DNA from: an uncultured Acidobacteriota bacterium | GTDB lineage: Bacteria; Acidobacteriota; UBA6911 | Assembly: GCA_963809485.1 (NCBI GenBank) | Contig: CAWEJX010000007.1 | Location: 416,001 to 480,000 of the forward strand | DNA length: 64,000 nt | Direction: 5' to 3' | Shown: one piece after another, positions 4,045-24,671 of the stretch | How positions within the stretch are numbered: position 1 is the first letter of the stretch | Layout of the letters: each line of letters begins with the position of its first letter | The notes under the pieces: model-generated | The model's input: only the letters and a program-made list of their open reading frames with translations | Told to the model about the DNA's origin: nothing | Databases searched by the model: none | Translations under genes and position numbers: made by a program

Positions 4045-6096
4045 TTACTTTTTGATGCGGACGTCTACTACTTTGGCTCCTTGTCCCTCCGGATAAACGA
4101 TAACGGGATTCAGGTCCATTTCCGCGATTTCGGGCAGATCGACGGCCATTTGGGATACAGAGACCAGCAGGCGCTCCACAGCGGCCAGATCGGCGGCAGG
4201 GAGGCCCCGCCCGCCCTTGAGCAGCGGGAGCGACCGGATTTCCCGGACCATTCGCGCGGCGCCTGCCTCGGAGAGAGGCGCCATCCGGAAGGAGACATCC
4301 TTGAGCGATTCCACGTGAACGCCGCCCAATCCGAACATGACAACCGGACCCACGCCCGGTTCGCGTTTAAGCCCTATGATGACTTCCGTCCCCGGCGGGC
4401 ATTGCTCCTGCACGACCAGATTCGCGCCCGGAAACCGGCCGGACATTTCTTCGACTGCCTTCTGAAGCGTTGCCTTGCGGGCGATGTTCAGAGCAACTCC
4501 CCCCGCATCGCTCTTGTGAACGACCTCCGCGCTGTCGACTTTCACCGCCACGGGAAATTTCAGCCCGGAGGGCAGCTGCGTCCCGGTCAACGGAACCGTG
4601 CGGGCGGCGGCGATCTTATAGGCATCCAGCACTTTGAAGGCAGCCGTTTGCGAAACGAATCCAGCAGGCTGTCTGGCCAGTATCTCCTGTGCCTCGGCCT
4701 TGTTTCCCGAAACAATGGCCGGCGGTTCGGCAAGGCGCTTACGGATTTCACCGTAACGCACCATGGCAGCCAGGACGCGCGCGCCTGTCTCCGGGAAGTC
4801 GAAGACCGGGATTCCCGCGCTCTTGATGGTTTCGACTGTTTTTGCCCAATTCTCGTTGGTCATGACGACGGCGATGATGGGCTTGGTCGCTTTACGCGCC
4901 GTCTCGGCAATGCTTCGGGCAATGGCTTCGCAATCCACGAAAAACGGTGTGACCATAGGAATGAGTATGGAGTCGACGCCCGGGTCATCGTTCAGGCAGG
5001 ACAGAGCCAGGGCGAAATGGTCGGCGTTGGCCGTTGCGGCGACATCGACGGGATTCTCCACGTAGGATTCCGCAATCAGCCCGGCGCGCAGCCTGCTCTT
5101 CGTTTCCTCAGTAAACCTGGCCAGCGAGAGCCCGTGGCCCACGCACTCATCCACGGCCATGATGCCGGGACCGCCGGCGTTCGCGATGATGCCCACGTTC
5201 GGACCGGCCGGCACCGGCTGGGTGGCGAACGCGTATGCCGCGGAGATCATCTCTTCCGTCGTGTTGAACCGCATCACGCCGGCGTGCTCGAATATCGTGT
5301 CCGTCAGGGAGTCCCTCTGCATGAGCGATCCCGTATGGGAGCTGACCGCCTTGGCGGCGGCCGCGGTGCGCCCGGTCCGGATCGCCAGTATGGATTTTTC
5401 GCGGGCAATGCGCCTGCAGCGCTCGATGAATCCGGGGGTATCCTTCATGCTTTCGATATGCATGATGATGGTCCGCGTCTCCGGATCATTGCCCAGATAA
5501 TCCAGCAGTTCGTTGGTATTCACATCGGTGGCATTGCCGTGGGATGCATAGATGCGGAAACCCGAGCCCATCCTGCGCAGGTTCAGGTTGAGCATCTCCG
5601 CCACACCGCCGCTCTGGGCAAGGATCGAGGCCTTGCCGGGACGCATCGGCGTAAAGGTGAAGTTGGCGTAGACGGAAATTTCCGGATCCGAATTCATGAC
5701 TCCCTGGGAATTCGGGCCATAAACACGCACGCCGTATCGGCGGGCCGCGTCGAGCAGGGCATCTTCGAGTTTGGCGCCTTCCTCTCCCATCTCGCGGAAC
5801 CCGGCAGTGTGGATGATGACGAACTTGACGCCCATTTTCCCGCAGTCCTCGACCACCTGCGGAACCATGGTGTTCTTGACCACTATGCTCGCGATATCCA
5901 CCGGTCCGGGCACATCCAGGATGCTCGGGTATGCCTTCAGGCCAAGGATTTCGGGCTCCTTCGGATGAATCGGAAAAATCGGGCCCTTGAAGCCGTGGTC
6001 CAGCAGGTTCTTGACGACGCGGTTTCCAATCGAAAAAGTATTGTTGGAAGCCCCTATGACGGCGACGCCGCGGGGCCGGAACAGTGAATCAAGCAT
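4045..6096 (-). CDS. acyl-CoA synthetase (ADP/NDP-forming), alpha-beta fusion (AcdA/B family)
   Basis: LDSLFRPRGVAVIGAS CoA-binding start, GPNSQG, SQSGG-like, phospho-His SHTGSL, ENPVD, ATP-grasp HKSDAGGV and EMDLNPV. Confidence 0.92.
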   Translation of the reverse strand: MLDSLFRPRGVAVIGASNNTFSIGNRVVKNLLDHGFKGPIFPIHPKEPEILGLKAYPSILDVPGPVDIASIVVKNTMVPQVVEDCGKMGVKFVIIHTAGFREMGEEGAKLEDALLDAARRYGVRVYGPNSQGVMNSDPEISVYANFTFTPMRPGKASILAQSGGVAEMLNLNLRRMGSGFRIYASHGNATDVNTNELLDYLGNDPETRTIIMHIESMKDTPGFIERCRRIAREKSILAIRTGRTAAAAKAVSSHTGSLMQRDSLTDTIFEHAGVMRFNTTEEMISAAYAFATQPVPAGPNVGIIANAGGPGIMAVDECVGHGLSLARFTEETKSRLRAGLIAESYVENPVDVAATANADHFALALSCLNDDPGVDSILIPMVTPFFVDCEAIARSIAETARKATKPIIAVVMTNENWAKTVETIKSAGIPVFDFPETGARVLAAMVRYGEIRKRLAEPPAIVSGNKAEAQEILARQPAGFVSQTAAFKVLDAYKIAAARTVPLTGTQLPSGLKFPVAVKVDSAEVVHKSDAGGVALNIARKATLQKAVEEMSGRFPGANLVVQEQCPPGTEVIIGLKREPGVGPVVMFGLGGVHVESLKDVSFRMAPLSEAGAARMVREIRSLPLLKGGRGLPAADLAAVERLLVSVSQMAVDLPEIAEMDLNPVIVYPEGQGAKVVDVRIKK

Positions 6097-6160
6097 AATG
6101 GCTCCTTAAGGAAAAATTAGTGTTCTGTGGAGTTGGCAACTCGCGAACGGGCAACCGGAA

Positions 6161-7372
6161 CTACTGGATTGCTCCTGCTTCTCTGAGCTTCGCAATTTCC
6201 TCCTTGCTGCAGCCGATTTCGAGCAGCACCTCTTCCGTGTGCTCACCCAGGTCCGGCGCCTTCCTTCTCCAGGATGCCGGCGTTTCGCTGAGATCCCAGG
6301 GGAATCCCATGGTCTTTGTGGGCCCGTGAACAGGGTGATCGATATTAATCATGTAGTTGTTCGCCAGCACCTGCGGGTCCTCCACAACTTCAGGGATGTT
6401 TTGGACCGGAGTATAGATGCAGCCGTGTTCTTCCAGGATCTTCATCCATTCATCCCGGGTTTTGCTGGCAAAAAGCCCGTCAAAAATGGCGATCAGTTCT
6501 TCGCGGTTGGCCGAACGGGCGGCAAAAGTGCTGAATCTCGGGTCATTGATCAGATTCTCGATTCCCAGGGCGCCGCAAACCTTCGCCCACCACCGGTCGG
6601 GGTCCAGGTGGGCGATGGCGATCCATCTGTCGTCTTTGCAGCGATAATGGTTGTACATGGGATTTCCCATTTGGGTTCTCACAAATCTGTGAAATTCCTG
6701 CTTCAGCATGGCCGTGCCGGACATAAGGTGCCCGATCAGGGCGACGACGCTGCCCATCAGCGAAGTGTCGACCACCTGGCCTTTGCCGGTCCGCTCGCGC
6801 GCAAAGAGCGCCAGGCATACGCCCCAGGCGCTTATGAGCCCGCCCAGTTCGTCGCCGAGGCCGGGAAGCATCATGCAGGGAGGCGTCTGGTCTTCCCCGG
6901 CCGCCATCATCAGGCCGGACCGCGCGATGCCGGTGTAATCGAAGGAAAGGCTGTTGGCGGACGGACCCTTGCGTCCCCAGCCGGATGCCTGCGCGTAGAT
7001 GAGCCGCGGATTGCGGGCAAGAAGCGCCTCCGGACCGATCCCGAGACGGATGGGGGCCGCAATGCTCATGTTGTTTAGGAATACATCCGCCCTATCGATG
7101 AGCTTGAGGAAGACATCCAGGCCTTCCTTCTTTTTCATGTCCAGGACGATGCCCCGCTTGTTGCGGTTGGCATGCTCGAAGTAATAGTTGTACCCCTTGA
7201 CGTTGAATTCGGCCTCGATCGTCCGGAAGTGGCGCCTTGCGGGATCTCCGTCTTTCGATTCGATCTTGATCACGTCGGCACCCAGGTCCCCCAGCCGCAT
7301 ACCGGCCACCGGTCCCTGCTGAAACGTGGAAATCTCTATGACCTTGATCCCTGAGAGCGGTCCTTCTGACAT
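6161..7372 (-). CDS. CoA-transferase family III (CaiB/BaiF/FldA)
   Basis: GPLSGIKVIE, GPVAGMRLGDLGADVIKIE, NRNKRGIVLD, catalytic GLGD, APDLGEHTEEVL. Confidence 0.93.
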   Translation of the reverse strand: MSEGPLSGIKVIEISTFQQGPVAGMRLGDLGADVIKIESKDGDPARRHFRTIEAEFNVKGYNYYFEHANRNKRGIVLDMKKKEGLDVFLKLIDRADVFLNNMSIAAPIRLGIGPEALLARNPRLIYAQASGWGRKGPSANSLSFDYTGIARSGLMMAAGEDQTPPCMMLPGLGDELGGLISAWGVCLALFARERTGKGQVVDTSLMGSVVALIGHLMSGTAMLKQEFHRFVRTQMGNPMYNHYRCKDDRWIAIAHLDPDRWWAKVCGALGIENLINDPRFSTFAARSANREELIAIFDGLFASKTRDEWMKILEEHGCIYTPVQNIPEVVEDPQVLANNYMINIDHPVHGPTKTMGFPWDLSETPASWRRKAPDLGEHTEEVLLEIGCSKEEIAKLREAGAIQ

Positions 7373-7588
7373 TGCATTCCTCCCGATGAGTTAATTTCCA
7401 GAAATCTTTCAACCGGGGATGCCTGCATGGAATCTGGCCCCCGGCAACGCGAGGGCCAATATATCACAGGGATCCGCCGGACCGCCACGCTAACGGTGGC
7501 CGGCCGGGCCGATCCTGAAACAATTGCAAAACGGAATGGAACCTCCGGGCCGGCTATTTCGTTTTAACGGGCAAGGAGGCATTTCGCC

Positions 7589-8578
7589 ATGAAACACTAC
7601 CCGTTGCGCATCGCGGCCATTATCGCTTTGACCAGTCTGATCGGATGCCTGACGGCATTCCCGGCTGTGGAGGGAAGATTTGAGCGAACGTTGACTGTGG
7701 CCGGCCCGGTCACCCTGGAAGTCACGACCGGCTCCGGAAGTATCGACGTGAAGGCAGGCAATTCCGGCTTCGTCAGGATTCGGGGAGTGATTAAGGCCCG
7801 GGATGACCGGCACGCGAGCGCGGAAGAGAAGATCAAATACCTGGAATCTCAACCGCCGATCGAGCAGAGCGGCAATGTTATCCGCGTTGGCCGGATCGAT
7901 GACGACGATTACAGGAATAATGTCTCAATCAGCTACGAGATAGAAACACCGCCCGAGACAACCCTGACCAGCCGCGCCGGGTCCGGAGGCCAGCGGATCT
8001 ATGGGCTGCAGGGACGCGTGGAAGTTGCTACCGGCTCCGGGTCCATCAATATGGATAATATACGGGGTGATGTGAACGCACAGGCCGGCTCGGGCGGCAT
8101 CGAAGCCCACGCTGTGACCGGACGGCTCGAGTTGAGAACCGGCAGCGGGTCCATCAGGGCGTTGGGGATTGCAGGGTCCATCAGCGCAAGCACGGGCAGC
8201 GGCGGTATAACCCTGGATCTGTCGGCCGCCGAACAGGGCTCTGCCATGGACGCGGAAGCCCACACCGGTTCGGGCAGCATCGAGGTTGACGGAGTTGCCG
8301 GATCCCTTCGGGCAAGCACAGGAAGCGGAAGCATCAAGGCCGGCGGGAACCCGGCGGGGAACTGGAGCATTAATACTTCATCCGGCAGCGTTTCGCTCGA
8401 AATGTCGCCACGCGCGGCATTTGATCTTCATGCCCGGACCGCCTCCGGCCGGATAAGTGTGGAGCCGCCGGTGGAAGTTCAAGGTGAAGTCGGCAGGAAC
8501 GAGCTCCGCGGCAAGGTACGCGGCGGCGGCAGCCTGGTCGAGGTTCGTACAAGCTCCGGCAGCATATCCGTCCAATAA
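7589..8578 (+). CDS. DUF4097 beta-strand-repeat (toast-rack/putative adhesin) exported protein
   Basis: Signal peptide followed by many TGSGSI/TGSGGI repeats. Confidence 0.85.
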   Translation: MKHYPLRIAAIIALTSLIGCLTAFPAVEGRFERTLTVAGPVTLEVTTGSGSIDVKAGNSGFVRIRGVIKARDDRHASAEEKIKYLESQPPIEQSGNVIRVGRIDDDDYRNNVSISYEIETPPETTLTSRAGSGGQRIYGLQGRVEVATGSGSINMDNIRGDVNAQAGSGGIEAHAVTGRLELRTGSGSIRALGIAGSISASTGSGGITLDLSAAEQGSAMDAEAHTGSGSIEVDGVAGSLRASTGSGSIKAGGNPAGNWSINTSSGSVSLEMSPRAAFDLHARTASGRISVEPPVEVQGEVGRNELRGKVRGGGSLVEVRTSSGSISVQ

Positions 8579-8599
8579 GCGCTTCCGTATCAAATCGCG

Positions 8600-8637
8600 A
8601 TCCTCATTGCTCACGGGATCCCGTGAGCAATGAGGAT
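8600..8637. repeat. perfect 38-bp palindrome with no loop
   Basis: ATCCTCATTGCTCACGGGA|TCCCGTGAGCAATGAGGAT, directly after the DUF4097 gene. Confidence 0.9.
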
Positions 8638-8827
8638 TCGTCTGCCCGAAGGGCCGGAATTTATGGACCGGATGCACTGCTTTCAGTGTAAAATTAGGGA
8701 TGGGACCGGTTTCGGGATCTCTGCAGACACGGAGAAAGCCGCGGTTTCATGTGCTTTTTCCCCGCATTAGTCTGACTCCCTGCGTTTCCTGTTTCGCCCA
8801 TATGCCGGTCACAGAAGGAGTCCATGC

Positions 8828-10105
8828 ATGAAGACCGTAAAGATGAAGCTCGGCCATGGCTACGTCGATGTATCCGTCCCGGAAGAAAACCTGCTGGGAG
8901 TGATCCTCAAAGAGGTGCCCCCCTCCACAATGACCGAAGACGAGGCGATCCTGTCTGCGCTCGCCCAACCGATCGGCACTCCGAGGCTGAAGGAGATCGT
9001 CAAACCCGGTCAGACCGTCTGCGTTGTCGTATCCGACGTGACCCGCGCCTGGCAGAGGATGCAAGTCTACCTGCCGCATATCGTGAACGAACTGAATGAA
9101 GCGGGTGTCAGGGACAAGGACATTCGTTTCCTGTGCGCTCTCGGCTACCACCGCAATCAGACTCCCGAGGAGCACGAGAGACAGCTGGGGAAGGCGCTTC
9201 TGGAGCGTTTTGGTATCACCGATCATGACTGCATGGACAAGGCCAACCTGGTCCCTCTGGGCACAACCAGCCGCGGAACTCCCGTGACCATCAACAGAAT
9301 CGCGGCGGAGGCCGACCACCTGGTCCTGACCGGCTGCTGCACCTATCACCCGTGGGTTGGCTGGGGAGGCGGAAAGAAGTCGATTCTGCCCGGGATCTCC
9401 TCCATCGAATCCATCCAGCACAATCACCTGATGGTGATGGATGATAAGGGCCGGCAGCGTCCCGAGGTAAGGAGCGGGAATATCCAGGATAATCCGATGC
9501 ACCAGGACATGCTCGAAGTCGCTTCAATTGTGAATCCTTCGTTCATGTTCAACGTGATCATGGGGCACGACGGCAAAATCGCCCGGGCCGTGTGCGGGCA
9601 CTATGAGCAGGCGCACGCTGTGGGACGCAAAATCGTGGACGATCTCTACGCAGTGCCGATCAAAGAGCTTGCTGACATCACGATTTCGTCGCAGGGCGGG
9701 TACCCGAAGGATATCGACGTCTGCCAGACCGGCAAAGGCATCTATCACACGCAGGAAGCAACAAAGCCCGGCGGCACCATAATCATCTTGAGCGACTGCT
9801 CGGAGGGCATCGGGCCGCCGGACGCAAACACCATTTTCCTGGGCTGCGGCACAAACGCCGAGAGGGAAAAAGAGGTCCGCAGTCTATTCACAGTGGCCAA
9901 GTACGTGAGCTATTACATGTGCACCGCCGCCGAAAAATGGAACATCATCATCGTGGGCGGCGGGGATCCTGCGCTGCTGAAGAGGACCTCGCTGAAGACG
10001 GCCAGGACGGTGGAGGAAGCTCTGGAGATGGCCTTCGCCAGGGGAGGGAAGAAAATATACCTGATGCCTCAGGGTTCGAGCGCGCTTCCCAAACTTACTG
10101 CATAA
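8828..10105 (+). CDS. larA: LarA-family nickel-pincer (NPN)-dependent 2-hydroxyacid racemase/epimerase 1
   Basis: SDVTR, LGYHR, HPWVGWGGGKKSILPG, IQHNH and QTGKG match the D/R, H, H/K, H and K catalytic positions of LarA. Confidence 0.9.
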   Translation: MKTVKMKLGHGYVDVSVPEENLLGVILKEVPPSTMTEDEAILSALAQPIGTPRLKEIVKPGQTVCVVVSDVTRAWQRMQVYLPHIVNELNEAGVRDKDIRFLCALGYHRNQTPEEHERQLGKALLERFGITDHDCMDKANLVPLGTTSRGTPVTINRIAAEADHLVLTGCCTYHPWVGWGGGKKSILPGISSIESIQHNHLMVMDDKGRQRPEVRSGNIQDNPMHQDMLEVASIVNPSFMFNVIMGHDGKIARAVCGHYEQAHAVGRKIVDDLYAVPIKELADITISSQGGYPKDIDVCQTGKGIYHTQEATKPGGTIIILSDCSEGIGPPDANTIFLGCGTNAEREKEVRSLFTVAKYVSYYMCTAAEKWNIIIVGGGDPALLKRTSLKTARTVEEALEMAFARGGKKIYLMPQGSSALPKLTA

Positions 10106-10114
10106 AGGCCGCCC

Positions 10115-10906
10115 CTACTGTTCCGCCTCCCGATCATCGGCGGCAAGCAGGGCGGCCCCAAAAGCGCCTGCCAGCTGCGCGTGAGGCAAAATGTTTACCG
10201 GGCGGCCTAACCGCTGGGACAGCATTTCCGCCAGTACCGGATTGTGGGCCACCACCCCGCCGCTGATGACGACATCGCCCGAGAGCGGATCCATTTCTAT
10301 AATCCGCTTCACGACCGATTCGATAAGCCCGGCAACGATCTCAGGCACTTTCTCGCCCGCGCGCAAATGGGACAGAATTTCCGTTTTGGTGAATACGGTG
10401 CAAAAGCTTCCCATGTGAACTATGTGTTTTGCCTGGCGCGCCAGGGATTCGATCTGGTCCATCGGCACGTCCATGCGCTGGGCAACCTCTTCGAGGAATG
10501 CGCCCGTTCCCGCAGCGCATTTGCGGTTCATTTTGAAATTGATACGCCTGCCTTCGGCGTCCACATGAATGACCTTGTTGTCCTGGCCTCCGACATCAAC
10601 GACTGCGATTTTGCGCGGGAAGAAGTGGTGTGCGGCGCGGGAGTGGCAGGCGATTTCCGTCCGGGTCGCATTGGCGAAAGAGACGTTGTGCCGGCCGTAG
10701 CCGGTTGAGAGGATGCGCGCGAGATCCGGCAGGCTTTTGCCGCAGGAAGCCAAAGCCGCATCCATGGCTTCCTGCGCGCACGTCTCGAAATTGACCCCGG
10801 TTTTCCTTACGTCGGAAGCCAGGAGCGCTTTCCGGGAATCAATAATCGCAACCTTGGTCGCCGAAGCGCCGACATCCACCCCGCCGTAAATCGCGTCGGA
10901 ACTCAC
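10115..10906 (-). CDS. CoA-substrate-specific enzyme activase (HgdC/FldI/BadF-G/BcrA-D ASKHA ATPase)
   Basis: GVDVGASATK, STGYGR, TEIACH, DVGGQDNK, NRKCAAGTG, SFCTVF. Confidence 0.92.
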   Translation of the reverse strand: MSSDAIYGGVDVGASATKVAIIDSRKALLASDVRKTGVNFETCAQEAMDAALASCGKSLPDLARILSTGYGRHNVSFANATRTEIACHSRAAHHFFPRKIAVVDVGGQDNKVIHVDAEGRRINFKMNRKCAAGTGAFLEEVAQRMDVPMDQIESLARQAKHIVHMGSFCTVFTKTEILSHLRAGEKVPEIVAGLIESVVKRIIEMDPLSGDVVISGGVVAHNPVLAEMLSQRLGRPVNILPHAQLAGAFGAALLAADDREAEQ

Positions 10907-12162
10907 CGGCCCTTCCTCTCCGCAAGTTGCTCGATGAAAGCCTCGATATTGGTGCGGGCCTGTTCTTCCGAGTAGCAGCGCAGGTCGTTCAGATCCCCGT
11001 GCAACACAAGCATCGGTATGTCGTACTTTTTGGCGAGACGTTCCGGCAGGCCGTAACGGTTGTTGGAATTGTTGGGGCAGGTTTTCGCGTCATGAAAAAT
11101 CATGCCGTCGATCTTGTACAGATCGATCTCTCTCTCGAAATAGTGCTCCTTGTACTCTTCATTGCGAACGATGAACAGTTCAATGTAGGCGCGCGCCATG
11201 CTGTCAAAGGGATCGTCCGGATCCAGAGCGGGGAAGACCCAGCTGCTGCAGTAGGTCGAAGCCAGAACGCAGGTATTCAGGCCTGCAAACTGGGTGGACA
11301 ATTCGCGCAGCTTGCCCCAGATCGGCATGCCTTCCCAGTAGAGGCGGAATCTCTCGTCGTCGATGGCTGCAATCCCGTCCTGGACCCGCTGCCGCAGTTC
11401 GGCAAGAAGCAATTTGTAGTAATCGACCGCCCGCTGTTCGCCCCGGAGAACCACCGCGGGGCCCATTTGGATCGTGCCATCAAAAAATGTCAGCGGGGAA
11501 GGGACGTTCGAAGCGATTTGCAGCACCTGTTTCCACAGGTCCGTGCATTGACGGGAAAGGCCGACCACACGCCTGAATTCCTCGTAATCCAGCTTTTGGC
11601 CGGAGATCTCCTCCAGCTTCGGAACAAGCGCCTTGATCTGGGCGGAGATGGAATCCACATGCGCTTTGGTAATGTCGCCGACGCCGCGGTGCGTCTCGAC
11701 GCCGATAACGGGCACCTTGAATTCCCGCGCATAGAAGTTGTACCAGTCCTGCACATCGCGGCACTGGTTGGTGTTGTAAACCAGCACGTCGGGGCGGGGC
11801 GGGCCGCTGATGCCGGGGTATGCCTTGCTTATGGGGCTTTCGCCCTTGATATAAGATCCGATATCGCTGGTCAGATACGAACAGATGTCGGGGGAGTAGC
11901 CCAGGGCATTGGCTATGGGAATGAGATCCGTGGCCATGCGGGTCGAGCCGAGCATGGCGCCGTGATTTTCCGGAAAGAAGACCAGGAATCCGGCTGCCCG
12001 CAGCAGTTCGGCGGGCCCGACACTGGTGCACCAGGCAATTTTGCGGCTTTTCGTCCTGGCAGCTTCATCCAGCTCGCGGAAATGCTGCTCCATGATTTCC
12101 TTCATTTTATTGGTTGCTTGGATTTTCTTGAATGCCTGCGGCTTTGTTTGTTCCGTTTTCAC
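10903..12162 (-). CDS. 2-hydroxyacyl-CoA dehydratase alpha-type subunit (HgdA/FldB/BcrB family)
   Basis: PENHGAM, GYSPDICSY, NTNQC, WEGMPIW, AKTC. GTG start at 12162 follows AGGAG/GAGG. The upstream extension of the listed ORF is antisense to the next gene. Confidence 0.88.
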   Translation of the reverse strand: MKTEQTKPQAFKKIQATNKMKEIMEQHFRELDEAARTKSRKIAWCTSVGPAELLRAAGFLVFFPENHGAMLGSTRMATDLIPIANALGYSPDICSYLTSDIGSYIKGESPISKAYPGISGPPRPDVLVYNTNQCRDVQDWYNFYAREFKVPVIGVETHRGVGDITKAHVDSISAQIKALVPKLEEISGQKLDYEEFRRVVGLSRQCTDLWKQVLQIASNVPSPLTFFDGTIQMGPAVVLRGEQRAVDYYKLLLAELRQRVQDGIAAIDDERFRLYWEGMPIWGKLRELSTQFAGLNTCVLASTYCSSWVFPALDPDDPFDSMARAYIELFIVRNEEYKEHYFEREIDLYKIDGMIFHDAKTCPNNSNNRYGLPERLAKKYDIPMLVLHGDLNDLRCYSEEQARTNIEAFIEQLAERKGR

Positions 12163-16125: not shown

Positions 16126-16138
16126 TTAGGGTGACTCT

Positions 16139-16997: not shown

Positions 16998-18281
16998 ATG
17001 AACTACTATCTGAATTACGGCGGCGGCAGAATGAATTTCTCCCTGCCGGCCGAATGGAATGTGCTCAGCTCCCGGGACTGCGCACCCGCGCCTTTGGTTG
17101 AGGACCCCGTCAAAGAGGTCGAACGCGCTCTTGACAATCCGATAGGGACCGCGCCTCTGGAAAAGCTCGCCCGTCCCGGAATGCGAACGGTGGTGCTTTT
17201 TGACGATATGCAGCGGCCGACTCCCGCCTATCTTGCTCTCCCGGCGGTCCTGAACCGTCTTAACAAGGCCGGGGTGCCCGACGAACGGATTACGGCCATT
17301 TGCGCGCGGGGAACCCATCCCGCGCCGACGCCGGAGCAGGTTGAAAAGAAAATCGGAACGGAAGCCGTGCGCCGGCTCGCAGGCCGCATACACATCCACG
17401 AATCCCAGTCGCCGGAAAACGTGTGGATAGGCAAAACCCGCCGCGGCACGGTGGTCGAGATCAATCGGCATGTGGCTGAAGCCGATCTGGTTCTGGGCAT
17501 CGGGGCGTGCATGCCCCATCCCAATGCCGGATTCGGGGGCGGCTGCAAGATCATCATGCCCGGAGTTGCCTCTTACCGCACCATCGGGGACCACCACTAC
17601 AACTGGCTTCGCAACAGGAGCTGCAAGCTGAATGTCCTGGAAGGGAATCCTTATTACGAAGAAATCGTGGAAATTGCCCGCCTGGGCTGCCTGGCCTTCA
17701 AAATCGATTTCCTCCTGAACGAAACCAACCAGGTCATCAGGGTTTTCGCGGGCGATCCCGTCGAGGAGCACCGGCAGGCCTGCGATCACGCTGCCTCTCT
17801 TTATGTTGTTGCCCTGCCGAAACAGGCAGATGTTGTGATCACATCGGCCTCGCCTCTTGAAATCGGCGTCCAGGCGACCAAATCGCTGCTTAACGCCAAG
17901 AGCGCCGCAAGGACAGACGCCACGATTATCTGGGTGGCCGGGCAAAAGCAGGCGGGCCCGTTGATGGCCCTCATCGAGCAGATGGCGGCCGCCAAAAGCG
18001 CCAACGAATACCATCGCCGGCTTCTCAACGGCGATATCCCGGACAGCATCAAACCTTACGGTATTTCGTTCTTCATGCTGGGCGTTCCGTTCAAGGAAAT
18101 GTCGGAGCAGTACAACGTGGTCCACGTGACGGAAGGTTTGACTAAGGAGCAGGTGGAACTGATGAATTTCGGATACGCTTCATCACTCGACGATGCGATC
18201 CGCGAAGTTCAGAAGAAAATGCCCCGAGCCGATGTAACGATTCTTCCCTCAGGCGGCATTATCATTCCATCGGTACAGTAG
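16998..18281 (+). CDS. larA: LarA-family NPN-dependent racemase/epimerase 2
   Basis: ATG 16998 after GAGG. DDMQRPTP, ARGTH, HPNAGFGGGCKIIMPG, GDHH, QATK. Confidence 0.88.
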   Translation: MNYYLNYGGGRMNFSLPAEWNVLSSRDCAPAPLVEDPVKEVERALDNPIGTAPLEKLARPGMRTVVLFDDMQRPTPAYLALPAVLNRLNKAGVPDERITAICARGTHPAPTPEQVEKKIGTEAVRRLAGRIHIHESQSPENVWIGKTRRGTVVEINRHVAEADLVLGIGACMPHPNAGFGGGCKIIMPGVASYRTIGDHHYNWLRNRSCKLNVLEGNPYYEEIVEIARLGCLAFKIDFLLNETNQVIRVFAGDPVEEHRQACDHAASLYVVALPKQADVVITSASPLEIGVQATKSLLNAKSAARTDATIIWVAGQKQAGPLMALIEQMAAAKSANEYHRRLLNGDIPDSIKPYGISFFMLGVPFKEMSEQYNVVHVTEGLTKEQVELMNFGYASSLDDAIREVQKKMPRADVTILPSGGIIIPSVQ

Positions 18282-18304
18282 GCGATTGCGTTACAGAACA
18301 ATCC

Positions 18305-18365: not shown

Positions 18366-18378
18366 CTCTTTTAAGCTC

Positions 18379-19589
18379 CTACACGGTTGCGCCGGAGCTT
18401 TTCAGACGGCCGATTTCCTCTCTGCTGTAACCTAGTTCCAGCAAAATCTCTTCCGTGTGCTCGCCCAGTTGAGGCGCCGGTTTTCTCCAGGAGGCCGGGG
18501 TTTCGCTGAAATCCCACGGGAAGCCGACTTCTCGAACCCGGCGTCCCCAGACCGGATGATCCACTTCTATGATGTATTGGTTGGCGATTGCCTGAGGGTC
18601 CTGGCAGACTTCCGTGAGAGACTGGACAGGAGTGCAGATGCAGCCTCCCTTCTTCAGCTGCTCAAGCCACTCATCGCGGTTTTGGCGGCAAATTTCTCAT
18701 CCAGAATGCGGATAAGCTCTTTTGAATTCTGGCCGCGCGCTTCCATGGTGTGGAACCTGGGATCGTGTTCCAGATGCTCGAGACCCATGGCCTTGCAGAA
18801 GATGGGCCAGTACCGGTCGGGCTGAAGGTGCGCCACCGCAATCCACTTGCCATCGCGGCATGAATAGTGGTTATACATGGGATTGCCCGCCTCATTCCGG
18901 CATTCCCGGGGGTATTCCTGTCCCAGCATGGCCGGGGCATCGAGGATGAGGCCGGCCAGGGCGATGATGCTGCCCATGAGCGATGTATCGATCAATTGGC
19001 CTTTGCCGGTCTTCTCGCGGGCATATAGAGCCGCTGTGATAGCCCAGGCAAGCATCAAGGCGCCGATCTGGTCGCCCAGACCGGGCAGCATTTGCGCCGG
19101 AGGGCTCCCTTTTTCGCCGGCGCACATCATCAGACCGGAACGGGCAATGCCCGTATAATCAAAGGAGAGGTCGCCGGCTGCGGGACCTTTTCTTCCCCAT
19201 CCCGAAGAATGGCCATAGATGAGGCGCGCATTCCGCTTCATCAGATCGTCGGGCCCGATGCCGATTTTAATCGGGGCGTCGATGCTCATATTCGTAATGA
19301 AGACATCCGCTTTGTCGATCAGCTTCAGGAATATCTCTTTCCCCTGGGGCGACTTGAGGTCCAGCGCGATGCTGCGCTTGTTGCGGTTGTTGCTTTCAAA
19401 GTAATAATTTTCGCCCTTAAGGCCCACCGTGGCTCCGATCAGCCGCATAAAGCCGCGGGCAGGATCCCCTTCTTTGGGTTCGACTTTGATGACGTCGGCG
19501 CCGAGATCCGCCAGTTTTGTTCCGGCGACCGGCCCCTGTTGAAACATGGTAATTTCCACTACACGAACGCCTGTCAGTGGCCCGGACAT
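18379..19589 (-). pseudogene. CoA-transferase family III with a 1-bp frameshift near 18678
   Basis: Paralog of 6161-7372. AAA ACC GCG ATG would need to read AAA ACC CGC GAT GAG TGG (KTRDEW); the alternate frame continues to GFPWDFSETPASW...LGEHTEE. True pseudogene or assembly indel. Confidence 0.8.
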
Positions 19590-19677
19590 CTGAAATCCTC
19601 CTTAAAAAAAATCGCTACTATAGTCGGCGGGAAAAGCCCAGTCAAGAATATCGGCCTTTGGCCGATGCTCCTAATCC

Positions 19678-20517
19678 TTATCTTCCCATGCGCCGGGCCT
19701 TTTCCAGGATCGAGGGCCGCGCTTCCTCCATCATGTCGCGGACAGCATCGTACCGCATGGTGCGCTGTTCGAAAGTGCGCTTCGTGAGAGCCCCGAGGAA
19801 CCGCCCTTCGAAATCCCGGAAATAGGATCCGTAAAGGTGATAGCTGTCTGCAATGTGGCAATATCGCCCGACTTTTATCTCTTTGCCCGACATCTCGGAG
19901 ATCCGGCCGGCCATCAGCTTCTGCAGCTGCACCAGGGCAAAGATGTTCATAAAAGCGGCCTTGTAGGCATCGTTGGAGCGGAAACGGGCATTGAGGCTGA
20001 GCAACCATTCGCCGTTTTCCTCGATCATACGGCCCCACAGGCTTTGAAGACAGGCCGGGTCGAAGCAGTCGTTGTCCTCCCAGACTTTCCAGGTGATCGC
20101 CTGTGCTCGCCGTGTGTGCGGGACTTCGGCCAGTTTCCGGCACATTGAATCGATCTGGTCGAAAGTCTGAAAACCCGGCACATCGTAGGCGAAGAGCCGG
20201 CGGTGATAGGTGTATTCCCATCGTGTATCCGCCGGATCCCCCGGATCGCGCACCAGGTGGTCTTTGATGCCTTCGCACACCTCCATGACATATTCCTGAA
20301 GCTCCACCGGCCCGCCGGGAAAATCTTTGTGGATCATGGGCTCACGGAGCGGATCGGCGATGGTCAGAATCATGGTGCAGTCTTTGCTCGGCGGATCTCC
20401 GTCCTTGTCAAATTGCGTGCGGATATCGCAACCGCGCCGGTGCAGTTCAAGCAGGGAGTTCTCCCAGCCGCGTGCGATGCAGTCCGCCTCCACATGCAAA
20501 ACAGGTATTCCGCTCAT
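19678..20517 (-). CDS. thymidylate synthase-like protein, archaeal/methanogen-style ThyA
   Basis: YTYHRRL, TRRAQAITW, catalytic PACLQ, RFRSND...FMN, HIADSYHLY. Confidence 0.8.
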   Translation of the reverse strand: MSGIPVLHVEADCIARGWENSLLELHRRGCDIRTQFDKDGDPPSKDCTMILTIADPLREPMIHKDFPGGPVELQEYVMEVCEGIKDHLVRDPGDPADTRWEYTYHRRLFAYDVPGFQTFDQIDSMCRKLAEVPHTRRAQAITWKVWEDNDCFDPACLQSLWGRMIEENGEWLLSLNARFRSNDAYKAAFMNIFALVQLQKLMAGRISEMSGKEIKVGRYCHIADSYHLYGSYFRDFEGRFLGALTKRTFEQRTMRYDAVRDMMEEARPSILEKARRMGR

Positions 20518-20710
20518 CCGACACTCCCGCGCGAAATAGATATGTCTATATAGCACGGATGCGCATAAAACCGCCATGATGTTCGGACTTCATTTGCGGC
20601 AGCGCGGCTTTGAGAAAAGCAGGCAAGTCTGTTTGCCCCTGATTTCCCCGGCGTGCTAGACTCTTCCGCGATCCGGCCAAATCCCGGATGCGCGAAGGAG
20701 TCGACAAATT

Positions 20711-21355
20711 ATGCCCGATATGTCCCGGCTTTATGATGCGATCCTCAACGGCGAGGACAAACTGGCGCTGCAGCTTGTCCAGGAAGCTCTGCAGGAATCC
20801 GCCAATCCCACCGAGCTGATCGGCCGGTGGATGATCCCGGCCATGGATGAAGTCGGCCGGCGCTTTGAAGCCCAGGAATACTTCATCCCGGAAATCCTGC
20901 TGGCCGCCCGCGCAATGAAAACAGCGATGGAGCCTTTGCGCCCTCTGCTTGCGGCGCGCGGAGAGCAGCCGACCGGGCGGGTAGTCCTGGGGACCGTGAA
21001 AGGAGACTTGCACGATATCGGCAAAAACATGGTCGGCTCCATGCTGGAAGGCGCTGGCTTTGAAGTCACGGATCTTGGGATCGATGTGCCGGCGGAGAAG
21101 TTCGTCGAAGCGGTCGGGAACGGCAACGCGAACATCCTCGCGCTCTCGGCTCTTCTAACGGTCACACTGCCGGAAATGAAAAAAACCATCGAGGCGCTCA
21201 GCCGCGCAGGCCTTCGCCACCGGGTAAGGATCCTGGTGGGCGGAGCGCCCGTCACCCAGGCTTATGCGGATGAAATCGGGGCCGACGGATATGGGGAAAA
21301 CGCCGGCTCCGCAGTGTCCATCGCCCGCGCTCTTCTGGAAAAACAAAAGCACTGA
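20711..21355 (+). CDS. corrinoid (cobalamin-binding) methyl-carrier protein, MtaC/MttC-like
   Basis: Cap domain IPAMDEVGRRFE..FIPEIL; GTVKGDLHDIGKNMV, LSALL, VGGAPVT. Confidence 0.93.
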   Translation: MPDMSRLYDAILNGEDKLALQLVQEALQESANPTELIGRWMIPAMDEVGRRFEAQEYFIPEILLAARAMKTAMEPLRPLLAARGEQPTGRVVLGTVKGDLHDIGKNMVGSMLEGAGFEVTDLGIDVPAEKFVEAVGNGNANILALSALLTVTLPEMKKTIEALSRAGLRHRVRILVGGAPVTQAYADEIGADGYGENAGSAVSIARALLEKQKH

Positions 21356-21443
21356 GCATGACCTTTGCCGCAGGAACCAGCGCCTTAAGAATCATCGTTA
21401 CTCCGCGTTTTTACAGCGTCCGTCGGCGTTAAAGGATCCTGGA

Positions 21444-21786
21444 GTCAGGTACCTCCGGCTTTGCCGGAGGCTTGAAAGATTAGATCCGCTCAAAACGGTT
21501 GGACTAGTTACGCCGGTCTTGAACGCTGACTTACGCGGGCAAAAGCCGATGAGGCGCTTCCGATCCCCGCAGGGGCCAGCGCTCCGCGCTGGACAGTTTA
21601 CTGCGGCCCTGTGGCAAGCGCCGTGCGGCAAGCAGATGAAGGGTATGAGAAACCGGGCGTTTGCCACAGTGCCGCCGCAGAAAACTCCATCGGAAGCGCC
21701 TCATCGGCTTTTGCTCGCCGAACAAATCGGCGTTTGTCAGCGTTTTAAACTACGGAGCTGTCAAACTCTTTGAGTCCCCCAGCCGA
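21444..21786. mobile_element. IS200-like nested MITE, copy 2 (right terminal hairpin damaged)
   Basis: Near-identical to copies 1 and 3. Nested inverted repeats surround a 43-bp core at 21618-21660. Confidence 0.7.
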
Positions 21787-21868
21787 GCGCTGAGATTATC
21801 GATATCTTTGCCGTTTCAATTATCCCCCCGATCATCTATTCTGAAAATTCAGTCTTGGAGGTGATTGA

Positions 21869-24331
21869 TTGGCCGGCCTGAAAATCAAGCCAAGATCCAA
21901 AGACACTGAGATCCTTCGGACTACCGTGTGGTCTGCCGGACCCGGATGCCACGGGACTTGCGGCGTGTTAGCCCACGTGCGCAAGGGCAAGCTCGTCAAG
22001 ATAGAAGGGGATCCCGATCATCCCTGGAACCAGGGGCGGCTTTGCGCCCGCTGCCTGGCGATGACCCAGTATGTGTATCACCCCGACCGCCTGACGCGTC
22101 CCTTGAAGCGTGCCGGCGAGCGGGGTGAAGGGAAATGGGAGGAGATATCCTGGGAAGAAGCCTTCGACCTGATCGAAAAAAGGCTGGGCGATATCCGGGA
22201 AAAATACGGTCCTGAGAGTGTCGTTTTCAGTATGGGAACGGGCCGGGACATCAGCTCCTGGCTCTGCATGCTGGCTTACGCCTTCGGCAGCCCGAACGTC
22301 ATGTTCGCATTGAGCGGAAACGCCTGTTACAGCCCGAGGATTGCCGCGGTCGAAACCGTGATGGGCGACTACTGCGTTCCCGATGCCGCGCAGTGGCTTG
22401 AGACTCGTTACGAGGACCCGCGCTACCGGGTGCCGAAGTGCATCGTGATCTGGGGCTACAACATTCCCAACACGTGCCCCGATAACATTTTCGGCCACTG
22501 GTTCATCGATCTGATGAAGCGCGGGAGCGAAATCGTCTGCATGGATCCGCGGCTGACATGGTTTTCTTCGCGCGCGAAGCATTGGCTCAGGCTCCGGCCG
22601 GGCACCGACGGAGCCCTGGCCATGGGCTTCCTGAACACGATCATCCGCGAGGACCTCTACGACCGCGATTTTGTGGAAAAATGGACCAATGCCCCATTCC
22701 TCGTCAGAAAGGATACCGGCAAACTGCTGCGGGAGGCCGATCTGCGGAAGGACGGTTCACGGGACAATTTCGTGGTTTGGGACCGCGAAGCAGGGCAGGC
22801 GGCTGTTTGGGAATCCGGGAAAGCGGGATATGCGTCCGGGAATCCCAGGCCGGCTCTGCGCGGCGACTATTCAGTCGATCTGGCGGAAGGCTCCAAAGCC
22901 GAATGCCGGACTGTGTGGGATGCGTTCTGCGCCGAGGTTGACGGGTACCCACTCGACCGGGTATCGGAAATCACATGGGTGCCCAAAAAGGAAATCCAGG
23001 CCGCTGCCCGCTTCTTCGCCGAAAGCAAACCTGCGTCGATTCATTGGGGCCTGCCGATCGATTCCACCCCGGGCATTACACCGGCGGCACAGGCAATTAC
23101 GGCTCTCTGGTGTCTCACGGGCAACCTGGAAGTCCCCGGAGGGAACGTAATCGCCCGCAACGCCTTCGAATGCGTTTCGTACGCTTTGCCGGGCGCCGAA
23201 GGGATCATACGCCTCTCATCCAAAGAGGCGGATCAGCCGCGGATCGGCACCGACAAATACGGCCCGTTCAGAAAATTCATCTGGCGAACTCAGACGGACA
23301 CGGCCCTGGATCAGATTCTCAGCGGGAAACCGTACCCGGTCAAAGCCCTCTGGATACAGACCGGCAACCTGATCGCCGGCATCGGTTTTGAACCGAAAAA
23401 GTGGCGCGAAGCTCTCAAGAAGCTTGATTTTGTTGCGGCGGTCGACCTGTTTATGACCCCCACAACCCAGTTTGCGGATATTGTCCTGCCCGCCGCCACG
23501 TTTCTTGAAAAGGACAGCGTCCGGAGCTGGTGGGTTCCCCTGCAGACCATCAACAAAGCGATTTCCGTCGAGGGCTGCAAGCCGGATGTCGAAATCAATT
23601 TTGAGCTGGCCCGCAGGTTCGATCCGAACCTGCGCTGGAAATCCGTGGAGGAGCTGTTCGACGACATCCTGCGGAATTCCGGAATGACTTTCAAAGAACT
23701 GCAGGAAAGGGAGTGGGCCCTGCCGCCGGAAGGGCATTCAAGCGCTCCTTACCACCGCCACGAAAAGGGATTGTTGCGCAAAGACGGACAGCCGGGCTTT
23801 GCCACTTCCTCGGGAAAAGTGGAACTGTACTCCGTGCTTCGCGAGGAGTGGGGGCTGGAGCCGCTGCCTCACTACGAGGAGCCTCCGTTTACGCCCGTAA
23901 GCAGGCCCGACCTGGCAAAGGAGTATCCCCTGATTCTTTCCACCGGCCGGCGCTCCTTCGCGTATTTCAACGCGGAGCACCGAATGATCCCGTGGCTGCG
24001 GGAACTCGATCCGGACCCGACCGTTGAGATTCACCCGGATACGGCCAGGGCGCTGAATATCGGCGACGGCGATTGGGTGTGGGTTGAAAACTGGCTGGGC
24101 AAGCAGAAGTTTAAGGCCAAGGTGACGCTTGCGGTTCTTCCGCAGATGGTCATGGCGGCGCATGGATGGTGGTTCCCCGAAGAGGACGGCGCGGAGCCGT
24201 CTCTGTTCGGCGCGTGGAAGTCGAACATCAACCAGCTGATCCCGATGGGGAGCCAGGGAAAGGATGGGCTGGGCGCACCGATCAAGAATCTGCTGTGCAA
24301 GGTTTACAAAGCCCGGGGGCGGGATGAATAG
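21869..24331 (+). CDS. bis-MGD molybdopterin oxidoreductase, acetylene-hydratase/catechol-dehydroxylase-like clade, cytoplasmic
   Basis: TTG start after GGAGG. WSAGPGCHGTCG...GRLCARC Fe-S motif, HPDRLTRPLKR, SGNACYSPR, ADIVLPAA, C-terminal MGD-binding domain (EIHPDTA, HGWW). No Tat leader. Confidence 0.88.
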   Translation: MAGLKIKPRSKDTEILRTTVWSAGPGCHGTCGVLAHVRKGKLVKIEGDPDHPWNQGRLCARCLAMTQYVYHPDRLTRPLKRAGERGEGKWEEISWEEAFDLIEKRLGDIREKYGPESVVFSMGTGRDISSWLCMLAYAFGSPNVMFALSGNACYSPRIAAVETVMGDYCVPDAAQWLETRYEDPRYRVPKCIVIWGYNIPNTCPDNIFGHWFIDLMKRGSEIVCMDPRLTWFSSRAKHWLRLRPGTDGALAMGFLNTIIREDLYDRDFVEKWTNAPFLVRKDTGKLLREADLRKDGSRDNFVVWDREAGQAAVWESGKAGYASGNPRPALRGDYSVDLAEGSKAECRTVWDAFCAEVDGYPLDRVSEITWVPKKEIQAAARFFAESKPASIHWGLPIDSTPGITPAAQAITALWCLTGNLEVPGGNVIARNAFECVSYALPGAEGIIRLSSKEADQPRIGTDKYGPFRKFIWRTQTDTALDQILSGKPYPVKALWIQTGNLIAGIGFEPKKWREALKKLDFVAAVDLFMTPTTQFADIVLPAATFLEKDSVRSWWVPLQTINKAISVEGCKPDVEINFELARRFDPNLRWKSVEELFDDILRNSGMTFKELQEREWALPPEGHSSAPYHRHEKGLLRKDGQPGFATSSGKVELYSVLREEWGLEPLPHYEEPPFTPVSRPDLAKEYPLILSTGRRSFAYFNAEHRMIPWLRELDPDPTVEIHPDTARALNIGDGDWVWVENWLGKQKFKAKVTLAVLPQMVMAAHGWWFPEEDGAEPSLFGAWKSNINQLIPMGSQGKDGLGAPIKNLLCKVYKARGRDE

Positions 24332-24671
24332 AATGGAAAAGAAGCCCGAATTCGGTTTGCTGATCGATTACGAATATTGCACCGGATGCCACAGCTGCGA
24401 AATCGCCTGTGCCCAGGAATACAACCATCCGCCCGGCATACGCGGCATCAAGGTCTTCGAGGTGGAGCAGAAGATGCCCAATGGCCGGCTGTACCTGGCC
24501 AACTTCCCGTTTCCCACCGAAACCTGCGTCCTTTGCCCGCACCTCACCCGGGAGGGCATGGAACCGGCTTGCGTGAAGCACTGCATGGCTGCCTGCATGA
24601 AATACGGACGCGTCGAGGATCTCGCTGCCGAACTGGGGAAGAAGCCCCGCATGGTCCTTTGGGTCCCTTGA
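24324..24671 (+). CDS. small 4Fe-4S electron-transfer subunit of the Mo enzyme
   Basis: GLLIDYEYCTGCHSCEIAC and CVLC...PACVKHC motifs; overlaps the upstream stop codon. Confidence 0.88.
   Translation: MNRMEKKPEFGLLIDYEYCTGCHSCEIACAQEYNHPPGIRGIKVFEVEQKMPNGRLYLANFPFPTETCVLCPHLTREGMEPACVKHCMAACMKYGRVEDLAAELGKKPRMVLWVP

Follow-up and report, generated by a model that had tools for sequence, protein, structure and literature searches.

The closest described counterparts of the system considered here are the clostridial ketyl-radical dehydratases HadA/HadBC/HadI and FldABC/FldI, in which a family-III coenzyme A (CoA) transferase is combined with an HGD-D dehydratase carrying one glutamate and three cysteines, and with an ASKHA ATPase that has two cluster cysteines. 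These systems use a dedicated d-2-hydroxyacid dehydrogenase. A related set of genes was located at positions 4045–24671 of a 64,000-nucleotide stretch of DNA from an uncultured soil or wetland Acidobacteriota bacterium of the lineage UBA6911 (assembly GCA_963809485.1, contig CAWEJX010000007.1, positions 416,001 to 480,000), hereafter called the window. It contains a HadB-like protein of the catalytic type (alpha1) with an ATPase (Act1) and an ADP-forming acyl-CoA synthetase (ACS), two homologues of the nickel-pincer nucleotide (NPN) type 2-hydroxyacid racemases (LarA1 and LarA2) and two family-III CoA-transferases (CoAT1 and CoAT2), which are treated as unit 1; a four-gene enzyme in the order of bzdNOPQ (unit 2); and a soluble Mo/W enzyme with a ferredoxin-like partner (unit 3). 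The reading that we favor, with a probability of roughly 0.55, is that three units stand side by side, of which the first would dehydrate an (aryl-)2-hydroxyacyl-CoA and the other two would be separate modules, possibly also related to aromatic compounds.

The likeness to the clostridial systems lies in the three protein families named above. The locus differs from them in that no beta subunit adjoins alpha1, two genomes having no HGD-D gene but this one, that alpha1 is accompanied by an NPN racemase or a PanE-like reductase in place of such a dehydrogenase, and that the ADP-forming synthetase is part of the conserved unit; moreover, the context outside the genus is oxidative, with benzoyl-CoA and beta-oxidation genes, rather than that of a reductive Stickland fermentation. 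A hypothesized conversion of phenyllactyl-CoA through cinnamoyl-CoA to benzoyl-CoA in a benzene degrader from another phylum (PMC13416013) is alike in its Fld-like dehydration followed by beta-oxidation to benzoyl-CoA, the comparison being one of descriptions and not of sequences. According to the available part of that source, its cluster includes two family-III-like CoA-transferases, a dehydratase-domain protein and an acyl-CoA synthetase, with LarA unmentioned. The lactoyl-CoA dehydratase cluster in the available part of PMC8914356 carries an epimerase, not LarA. Beyond a general review, no published pairing of LarA with a 2-hydroxyacyl-CoA dehydratase was found in a search that stopped short of the supplementary gene-context tables of the LarA papers, and in the literature searched the only match for a route from phenyllactate dehydration to benzoyl-CoA was the hypothesis for the other phylum, none being met in Acidobacteriota.

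Three further systems serve for comparison. In the class I BZD-type benzoyl-CoA reductase BzdNOPQ, as far as the available part of the structural report goes, BzdN holds an [8Fe-9S] double cubane on six cysteines (PMC11971306), and the corresponding motif of the double-cubane cluster protein (DCCP) is given in the available part of PMC7317905. The DCCP system, with its reductase, resembles alpha1 and Act1 in consisting of one HGD-D protein and one ASKHA ATPase, and the solved DCCP is a homodimer (PMC7317905, available part). For unit 3 the counterparts are acetylene hydratase and those catechol dehydroxylases of the Gordonibacter type that are soluble (PMC7028382).

The alpha1–Act1–ACS trio

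The gene calls are based on an open reading frame (ORF) listing with Pfam and NCBIfam profile scans of the window ORFs, and the relationships of alpha1, alpha2 and beta were judged by scores against PDB chains and NCBIfam models. All families named in an earlier sequence-only reading of this DNA were located by these scans, including the three HGD-D proteins and three BcrAD_BadFG ATPases, and its count of two alpha and one beta subunits proved right, since alpha1 and alpha2 score as catalytic subunits and beta as a BzdN/HadC-like one.

The alpha1 gene (10903–12162, minus strand) encodes an HGD-D protein whose best solved relative is HadB (PDB 3o3m_A, 172 bits), followed by MbdO (113.5 bits) and BzdO (89.6 bits); HadB is also its top NCBIfam match. 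DCCP matches it weakly (22.9 bits) and differs from it in kind, alpha1 lacking the 7-Cys motif and belonging to the catalytic 3-Cys type. Its Glu65, Cys94, Cys134 and Cys362, which align with the PEN glutamate and the three cysteine motifs of HadB, do not vary among 23 orthologues. Act1, an ATPase of the activator or 'archerase' kind (10115–10906, minus strand; Pfam BcrAD_BadFG), scores 220 bits against TIGR00241 (cut-off 125), and two cysteines seen in its sequence are read as the cluster ligands, at positions that we assume from HgdC. ACS (4045–6096, minus strand) is a fused alpha/beta ADP-forming (NDP-forming) synthetase with the Pfam domains CoA_binding_2, Succ_CoA_lig, Ligase_CoA_2 and ATP-grasp_5, and its nearest NCBIfam model is 4-hydroxybutyrate–CoA ligase (485 bits, cut-off 1300). 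The sequence-only reading had assigned to ACS the recovery of ATP, a role that the gene itself does not establish, acid activation being equally possible; in view of its place in a conserved trio and of its closest affinity, among named families, to hydroxyacid-CoA ligases of the ADP-forming kind, it would more likely activate the acid.

Matches to alpha1 (E ≤ 1e-40) occur in 86 of 401 genomes of the phylum, about 18 of them being orthologues with 57–86% identity from many families. At the 17 phylum loci with enough flanking DNA Act1 always adjoins alpha1, and ACS adjoins both in 12 of them. No beta-type gene was seen beside alpha1 at these 17 loci or in the clusters of the genus. A distant four-gene set lies about 4–6 kb from alpha1/Act1 at two of the 17 phylum loci; separate four-gene sets occur near the trio in genomes G197 and G373, and another HGD-D pair lies 27 kb away in G379. 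In two genomes, G421 with a completeness of 91% and G300 with one of 96%, alpha1 is the sole match to the HGD-D profile (PF06050) in the whole genome. A partnership of alpha1 with a neighboring beta was accordingly rejected, the orthologues having no beta nearby and two genomes having no other HGD-D gene.

Some separate observations concern the same family. One in-frame TAA codon is present in each of two alpha1 orthologues (G417:C255:9721-10965 and G428:C86:13164-14402). Of all HGD-D matches in the bacterium's genome, the strongest (392 bits) is a lone gene on another contig (G000:C8:635533-636576), and a further alpha/beta-like HGD-D pair is found on its contig C12.

The racemase homologues and the CoA-transferases

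LarA1 (8828–10105) and LarA2 (16998–18281), both on the plus strand, have the Pfam domains Lar_N and LarA_C. Both keep the equivalents of His108, His174, Lys184, His200 and Arg75 (R73/75) of Lactobacillus plantarum LarA (5huq), which comprise the two catalytic histidines, the lysine tethering NPN, the histidine that binds nickel and the arginine for the substrate; the residues following His174 are PW and PN, compared with FF in lactate racemase and YK in Mar2. The nearest NCBIfam model of LarA1 is LarAH10 (452 bits, cut-off 540), which according to the available parts of PMC7583248 and PMC11770544 acts on phenyllactate and many other hydrophobic 2-hydroxyacids, and that of LarA2 is LarAH6, a malate racemase (275 bits, cut-off 500). 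The likeness to the LarA superfamily thus comprises the two domains, all catalytic and NPN-binding residues and the presence of the NPN synthesis genes, both proteins staying below the family cut-offs. The absence of larB, larC and larE had been named as an observation that would refute the proposed pathway; all three are present in the genome above their cut-offs (LarC 472, LarE 310 and LarB 286 bits). A further LarA homologue of this genome is split at G000:C21:123278-123860 (Lar_N positions 1–96 and 97–198) and is probably frameshifted.

CoAT1 (6161–7372, minus strand) matches CoA_transf_3 over its full length with 385 bits and is kept together with LarA1 in G433, G426, G415 and G290. CoAT2 (18379–19589, minus strand) was correctly recognized by the sequence-only reading as a second transferase, but in this assembly its frame is broken: one T has dropped out of a short run at about position 18679, so that the intact-frame ORF (18654–19589, 311 aa) covers profile positions 1–294 of 366 of CoA_transf_3 and the C-terminal part lies in another frame. 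The frame is intact at the related loci L012, L017 and L154, and the extra T is present in the contigs of the relatives in both of the two sequencing runs that cover the site. As the CoAT2 of the relatives is intact, the break reflects either a fault of the assembly or a pseudogene peculiar to this strain.

The genus counts given below refer to 19 further species, whose genomes are related and not independent. Matches were found for alpha1 in 17 of them, LarA2 in 13 and Mo in 11, and LarA1 in 6. All 13 genomes with LarA2 hold alpha1, and in at least 10 the two genes are divergently adjacent, at 68–98% protein identity. G300 is devoid of LarA2, and there a gene for a PanE/ApbA-type reductase adjoins alpha1 instead. 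The combination of LarA, a family-III CoA-transferase, a HadB-like enzyme with its activase and ACS, which the sequence-only reading had included in its pathway, is a cluster kept in the genus.

From these data the following course of events is proposed for unit 1. LarA2, and in this bacterium also LarA1, would interconvert the enantiomers of a 2-hydroxyacid, a step for which relatives may use a D-specific reductase instead, and a family-III CoA-transferase (CoAT2, CoAT1) and/or ACS would form the 2-hydroxyacyl-CoA. Act1 would then pass one electron to the [4Fe-4S] cluster of alpha1, and water would be removed through a ketyl radical to give the 2-enoyl-CoA. A phenyllactate-like 2-hydroxyacid, hydrophobic or aromatic, would be the most likely substrate, and beta-oxidation of its enoyl-CoA would yield benzoyl-CoA. 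The substrate, a homomeric state of alpha1 and any link of unit 1 to units 2 and 3 are what we infer from the gene content and its conservation.

Relation to benzoyl-CoA metabolism

The suggestion of an aryl-lactate-type substrate comes from the company of alpha1 outside the genus, where PanE-like 2-oxoacid reductases, beta-oxidation genes and genes of the benzoyl-CoA pathway recur. The latter comprise Oah (564.7 bits, cut-off 464.45) and Dch (448 bits, cut-off 292.5), both of the enoyl-CoA hydratase family, and a Had-like Zn-dehydrogenase (260 bits, below the cut-off), one or another of which is found at 6 of 19 phylum alpha1 loci; the other recurrent neighbors are PanE/ApbA reductases, thiolases, 3-hydroxyacyl-CoA dehydrogenases and AMP-forming ligases. 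In the bacterium's own family, outside its genus, alpha1 and Oah occur in the same 4 of 21 genomes (G412, G418, G405 and G210), always on one contig. No Oah, Dch or Had gene was present within 10 kb at 80 alpha2 loci or 79 Mo loci.

The bacterium itself carries, on one strand of its contig C1 (L247, G000:C1:484001-503900), genes for an Hdr/TfrB-like Fe-S protein, a BamB-like protein of the AOR family (655 aa), a Dch-like protein, a Had-like protein and Oah, the last with 541.6 bits and thus above the cut-off. The Had-like ORF is short (278 aa, model positions 7–254 of 349) and may be truncated or frameshifted. Because of this BamB-like/Dch/Had/Oah cluster, the organism probably degrades aromatic rings via benzoyl-CoA with a reductase of the class II type, and the benzoyl-CoA formed in the proposed course would be handled by these genes on the other contig. 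The role of a benzoyl-CoA reductase is then needed from neither alpha1 nor the bzd-like unit. Together with the neighbors of the alpha1 orthologues this makes the aromatic connection drawn by the sequence-only reading plausible.

The bzdNOPQ-like unit

Unit 2 consists of four genes on the plus strand, namely beta (12361–13518), alpha2 (13531–14859), Act2 (15120–15971) and Act3 (16139–16900), in the order N-like, O-like and two ATPases, and would form an ATP-dependent radical enzyme acting on some acyl-CoA. The best solved relative of the HGD-D protein beta is BzdN (189.5 bits), before HadC (120.7 bits) and DCCP (100 bits), and that of alpha2, likewise HGD-D, is BzdO (84.6 bits), before MbdO (67.2 bits) and HadB (58.3 bits). 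Both ATPases match Pfam BcrAD_BadFG; Act2, which occupies the BzdP/Q position, scores 268 bits against TIGR00241 and 166 bits against BzdQ, the latter below the cut-off, and Act3 scores 219.5 bits against TIGR00241. The residue roles in BzdO and the BzdNO structure used for comparison are those of PMC11971306, available in part. Alpha2 keeps the BzdO residues Cys95, Cys128, Cys380, Glu65, Tyr97 and Tyr298, with arginine in place of His131, a histidine that MbdO likewise does not have; no publication on the MbdON structure was found.

The resemblance to BzdNOPQ thus covers the gene order, BzdN and BzdO as best solved relatives and the Cys, Glu and Tyr residues of alpha2. In contrast, three of the six double-cubane cysteines of BzdN and DCCP are Ser or other residues in beta, as judged by pairwise alignment, and across 65 orthologues only Cys76, Cys103 and Cys337 do not vary, a 3-Cys motif that is predicted to hold a single [4Fe-4S] cluster and is not the double-cubane set. 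The unit differs further in the Arg for His131 and in other pocket residues of alpha2, in scores far under the NCBIfam equivalog cut-offs (bzdN 191.5/453.8, bzdO 98.4/448.6, bzdQ 165.6/380.2) and in the Dch, Had and Oah genes, which are wanting within 10 kb in its 80 loci.

Those 80 genome loci, from a scan with one genome per species, hold alpha2 orthologues with 72–99% identity and belong to Acidobacteriota metagenome-assembled genomes and, for the most part, to Syntrophorhabdaceae and their relatives, Syntrophorhabdus aromaticivorans UI being among the carriers. All four genes are present in 50 of the 80. Downstream DNA of 2.2 kb or more is available at 67 loci, and at 48 of these alpha2 is followed by the two ATPases. 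It was also observed that the N–O pair stands without adjacent ATPase genes in the other 19 of these 67 (L033–L072), again from Syntrophorhabdaceae and relatives, several of these genomes being multi-copy; catalytic N–O pairs may share ATPases. The commonest neighbors of the unit in Syntrophorhabdaceae are AMP-forming CoA ligases, sigma-54 activators, PAS-HD regulators, flavoproteins of the geranylgeranyl-reductase family and TRAP binding proteins. In six other Acidobacteriota loci it stands among unrelated genes (for instance sulfatase, carboxylesterase, glycosyltransferases and transporters). The literature on the bzd-like unit of Syntrophorhabdus, including the available part of PMC10936416, offered nothing on its function.

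The Mo/W enzyme and its partners

The Mo gene (21869–24331, plus strand; Pfam Molybdop_Fe4S4, Molybdopterin and Molydop_binding) encodes a cytoplasmic oxidoreductase of the bis-MGD (bis-molybdopterin guanine dinucleotide) type, of an acetylene-hydratase/Psr-related clade, its top PDB match being acetylene hydratase (270 bits), followed closely by PhsA/Psr (227 bits). The Fe4S4 domain begins at residue 19, which leaves no room for a Tat (twin-arginine translocation) signal, and Cys153 aligns with the metal-ligand cysteine. Asp13 of acetylene hydratase, which we take to be its catalytic residue beside a cluster cysteine, corresponds to His28, and the first Fe-S cysteine to glycine, both residues being invariant in 43 orthologues. 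The adjoining FeS gene (24264–24671, plus strand; true start probably 24324) encodes a small 2x[4Fe-4S] ferredoxin-like subunit with weak Fer4 matches, in which eight cysteines are invariant in 41 orthologues and the first 20 residues are absent from 32 of the 41. Unit 3 would thus consist of a soluble Mo/W enzyme together with the ferredoxin-like protein, and its activity may be that of an aromatic dehydroxylase or of a hydratase. The sequence-only reading had spoken of an enzyme resembling the catechol dehydroxylases, which agrees with acetylene hydratase as the nearest solved relative, with the lack of a Tat signal and with the small 4Fe-4S partner, as in the Gordonibacter type portrayed in the available part of PMC7028382. 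The Mo enzyme is like acetylene hydratase and these soluble dehydroxylases in the bis-MGD type, the metal-ligand cysteine, the absence of Tat and the small partner gene; the differences are the invariant His for Asp13, the Gly for the first Fe-S Cys and the corrinoid gene upstream in close relatives, the dehydroxylases being compared by description only.

The corrinoid gene (20711–21355, plus strand) encodes an MtgC/MtbC-like protein with a B12-binding_2 cap and a B12-binding domain, below the Pfam/NCBIfam equivalog cut-offs. Among 79 Mo loci from a metagenome scan, FeS follows Mo in 55 of the 57 with downstream DNA, and the corrinoid gene stands upstream in 8 of 11 loci with enough upstream DNA in which Mo is at least 79% identical, as against none of 36 at lower identity. 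CoAT2 and ThyA accompany Mo in only 4 of the 79, and no other widely shared neighbor was found among them. The corrinoid gene is missing from the otherwise identical clusters of G417 and G421. The spacer between the corrinoid and Mo genes (21356–21868) measures about 510 bp in the window; in L012 its length is about 190 bp, and in L017 about 157 bp. A 169-aa ORF (21264–21773) lying across this spacer was rejected as probably no gene, as it is poorly conserved and the corresponding gap in the two relatives is only that long.

A composite island

The order ACS–Act1–alpha1, LarA2, CoAT–ThyA and (corrinoid) Mo–FeS occurs without unit 2 in G417, G430, G421 and G431 and at the metagenome locus L154. 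Unit 2 stands alone elsewhere in the genomes of G433, G426 and G415. In G433, an assembly of 20 contigs, the genes are divided among three contigs, one with ACS, CoAT1, LarA1, Act1, alpha1, LarA2 and CoAT2, one with ThyA, Mo and FeS and one with unit 2. Conversely, other genes of the island accompany alpha2 at only two of its 80 loci, L012 (99% identity), with the whole island, and L017 (92%), with the right half. The island is best read as a composite of three independently inherited units that have been joined in this lineage, unit 2 having presumably been inserted between alpha1 and LarA2. The expectation of the sequence-only reading that the neighborhood would recur in other genomes is thus borne out for the cluster of unit 1, within the genus, and not for the whole island, and its one conserved 21-kb pathway is not upheld, unit 2, Mo–FeS and the alpha1 trio each being alone in most other genomes.

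Several observations weigh against the favored reading. All of the proteins stay below the equivalog cut-offs of NCBIfam; the nearest named family of LarA2 is, by its sequence, a malate racemase and not a racemase of hydrophobic acids; and no precedent was found for a characterized radical dehydratase without a beta subunit, so that alpha1 could work with an unrecognized partner. The cluster is conserved within a single genus only. Oah was found in 10 of the 19 genus genomes (8 above the cut-off, 2 partial), and alpha1 is present in 8 in which it was not found, for which reason the aromatic end-route is not general. As for the separateness of the units, Mo and Oah occur together in 9 genomes of the genus, Mo alone in 2, Oah alone in 1 and neither in 7, and unit 2 is confined to genus genomes that also hold units 1 and 3; these co-occurrences are a hint of a functional tie between the units, drawn from kindred genomes.

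A wider proposal, which we regard as doubtful, takes the favored reading a step further: alpha1 and Act1 would represent a new, homomeric and beta-free branch of the benzoyl-CoA reductase/2-hydroxyacyl-CoA dehydratase (BCR/HAD) family which, with the ADP-forming ligase and an NPN racemase or a PanE-like reductase, would provide Acidobacteriota with an oxidative route from aryl-lactates to benzoyl-CoA. The aryl-lactates would come from aromatic amino acids and plant phenyl-lactates, and in this genus the Mo and bzd-like enzymes would extend the route to hydroxylated rings.

Alternative explanations

Among the other explanations, the one that survives best, though we consider it unlikely, is the single pathway of the sequence-only reading, in which all units would act on (methoxy/hydroxy)aromatic 2-hydroxyacids through corrinoid-dependent demethylation, racemization, CoA transfer, dehydration, ring dehydroxylation by the Mo enzyme, bzd-like reduction of the substituted benzoyl-CoA and recovery of ATP by ACS. 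The units are contiguous in the window and in G432 (L012), and partly so in G290 (L017 and L239). Unit 2 (alpha2 at 92% identity or more, 5 of the 19 genomes) and LarA1 (at 79% or more, with a match at 72% in one further genome) are found in the same 5 genomes of the genus, all of which have alpha1, LarA2 and Mo, and the joint occurrence of Mo and Oah just mentioned points the same way. The affinities of single proteins would also fit, as the Mo enzyme has acetylene hydratase for its nearest solved relative, as is reported of the catechol dehydroxylases, and has the soluble make-up of the Gordonibacter type (PMC7028382, available part), and LarA1 is nearest to the phenyllactate-active LarAH10. 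On the other hand, each unit is solitary in most genomes and contigs examined, the three units of G433 lie on three contigs, units 1 and 3 occur without unit 2 in four genomes of the genus and alpha1 and LarA2 without Mo in three, and the co-occurrences were all drawn from one genus of kin genomes. Of the benzoyl-CoA pathway genes Oah, Dch and Had, moreover, none was present within 10 kb of the alpha2 and Mo loci. The O-demethylation in particular is not supported: besides the corrinoid protein, no methyltransferase Pfam family turned up in the general ORF scans of the window, which cover 1–31 kb, and the corrinoid gene is absent from several clusters.

Less likely still is that alpha1 and Act1 form an ATP-dependent BCR/HAD-family reductase pared down to two components, which would act on an aryl-CoA by dearomatization or dehydroxylation, or on an alicyclic enoyl-CoA, the CoA ester being supplied by ACS. 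At L203 the genes run Had-like, Dch, Act1, alpha1 and ACS on one strand, so that alpha1 takes the usual place of a benzoyl-CoA reductase; Oah lies 3–23 kb from alpha1 in the four genomes of the family mentioned above; a BamB-like protein was not found (E ≤ 1e-30) in G379 and G031; and MbdO, the second-best solved relative of alpha1, is the catalytic subunit of a benzoyl-CoA-type reductase. Against this stand the better match to HadB among both solved structures and NCBIfam models, the 2-hydroxyacid enzymes (LarA, the PanE-like reductase and the CoA-transferase) that flank alpha1 in the genus, and the 8 genomes of the genus in which alpha1 is present and Oah was not found, G421 and G300, with alpha1 as their sole HGD-D protein, among them. 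Other candidate reductases are also at hand, namely the HGD-D pair of G379 and the four-gene sets of G197 and G373.

Improbable, finally, is the absence of any functional coupling beyond the gene pairs, each with its own substrate and neighbors only by shared descent and by insertions into a variable region on the origin side, for although Mo–FeS lies next to rpsA, sppA and dnaA in relatives, a 9.5-kb efflux block is inserted in the window, DUF4097 and probably ThyA are unrelated genes within the stretch and the cluster is kept in one genus only, LarA2 remains adjacent to alpha1 in at least 10 genomes down to 68% identity, a PanE-like reductase stands in where LarA2 is lacking, pointing to a common task, and the alpha1–Act1–ACS trio is kept across many families of the phylum.

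Other genes of the window

Two genes are additions to the inventory of the sequence-only reading. The DUF4097/LiaG-like gene (7589–8578, plus strand; Pfam DUF4097) is probably an unrelated insertion; it is 79% identical in L012, where its neighbors are 95–97% identical, and it was not detected between CoAT1 and LarA1 in L236–L238. The ThyA-like gene (19678–20577, minus strand; Pfam Thymidylat_synt) belongs to the archaeal-type thymidylate synthase family (TIGR03283, 95.6 bits, cut-off 174.55), and its motifs were read from the sequence at what are presumably the motif positions. It is the sole match to PF00303 in the bacterium's genome, in which no ThyX was found, and is probably the cell's thymidylate synthase, with a housekeeping role. 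Outside the family, 14 genomes hold a ThyA-like orthologue, and ThyX is present as well in 12 of them; the tally of ThyX for the phylum is 278 of 401 genomes, including G024.

Further downstream, about 9.5 kb of the window (24700–34200) hold an RND efflux system, with OEP at 25797–27095, HlyD at 27082–28293 and AcrB at 28365–31496, and a VWA/Mg-chelatase-like gene at 31852–33891. This block is absent from L093 and L094, in which rpsA and sppA directly follow Mo–FeS. The genes dnaA, dnaN, recF, gyrB and gyrA stand in a row at 38272–47401, which places the region of the chromosomal replication origin about 14 kb from the cluster.

Significance

All the protein families of the island are known, and nothing in it is categorically new. 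Three combinations are new in the sense that the literature searched holds no description of them: a catalytic HGD-D enzyme that consists of alpha only and is accompanied by an ATPase of its own and by an ADP-forming synthetase; NPN racemases paired with an enzyme of this kind; and an enzyme in the bzdNOPQ order whose N subunit is devoid of the double-cubane ligands. Acidobacteriota are abundant in anoxic soils and peat, and their anaerobic carbon metabolism is poorly known.

If alpha1 does work without a beta subunit, the two-subunit picture of the ketyl-radical dehydratases would need widening, and the alpha-only enzyme would offer a simpler object for study and biocatalysis. Of the two other enzyme families, the 3-Cys-N bzd-like unit is widespread in Syntrophorhabdaceae and Acidobacteriota, and the Tat-less Mo enzyme with its N-terminal His and Gly replacements is highly conserved. 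The link of alpha1 to benzoyl-CoA genes suggests an unrecognized entry of aromatic hydroxy-acids into anaerobic ring degradation.

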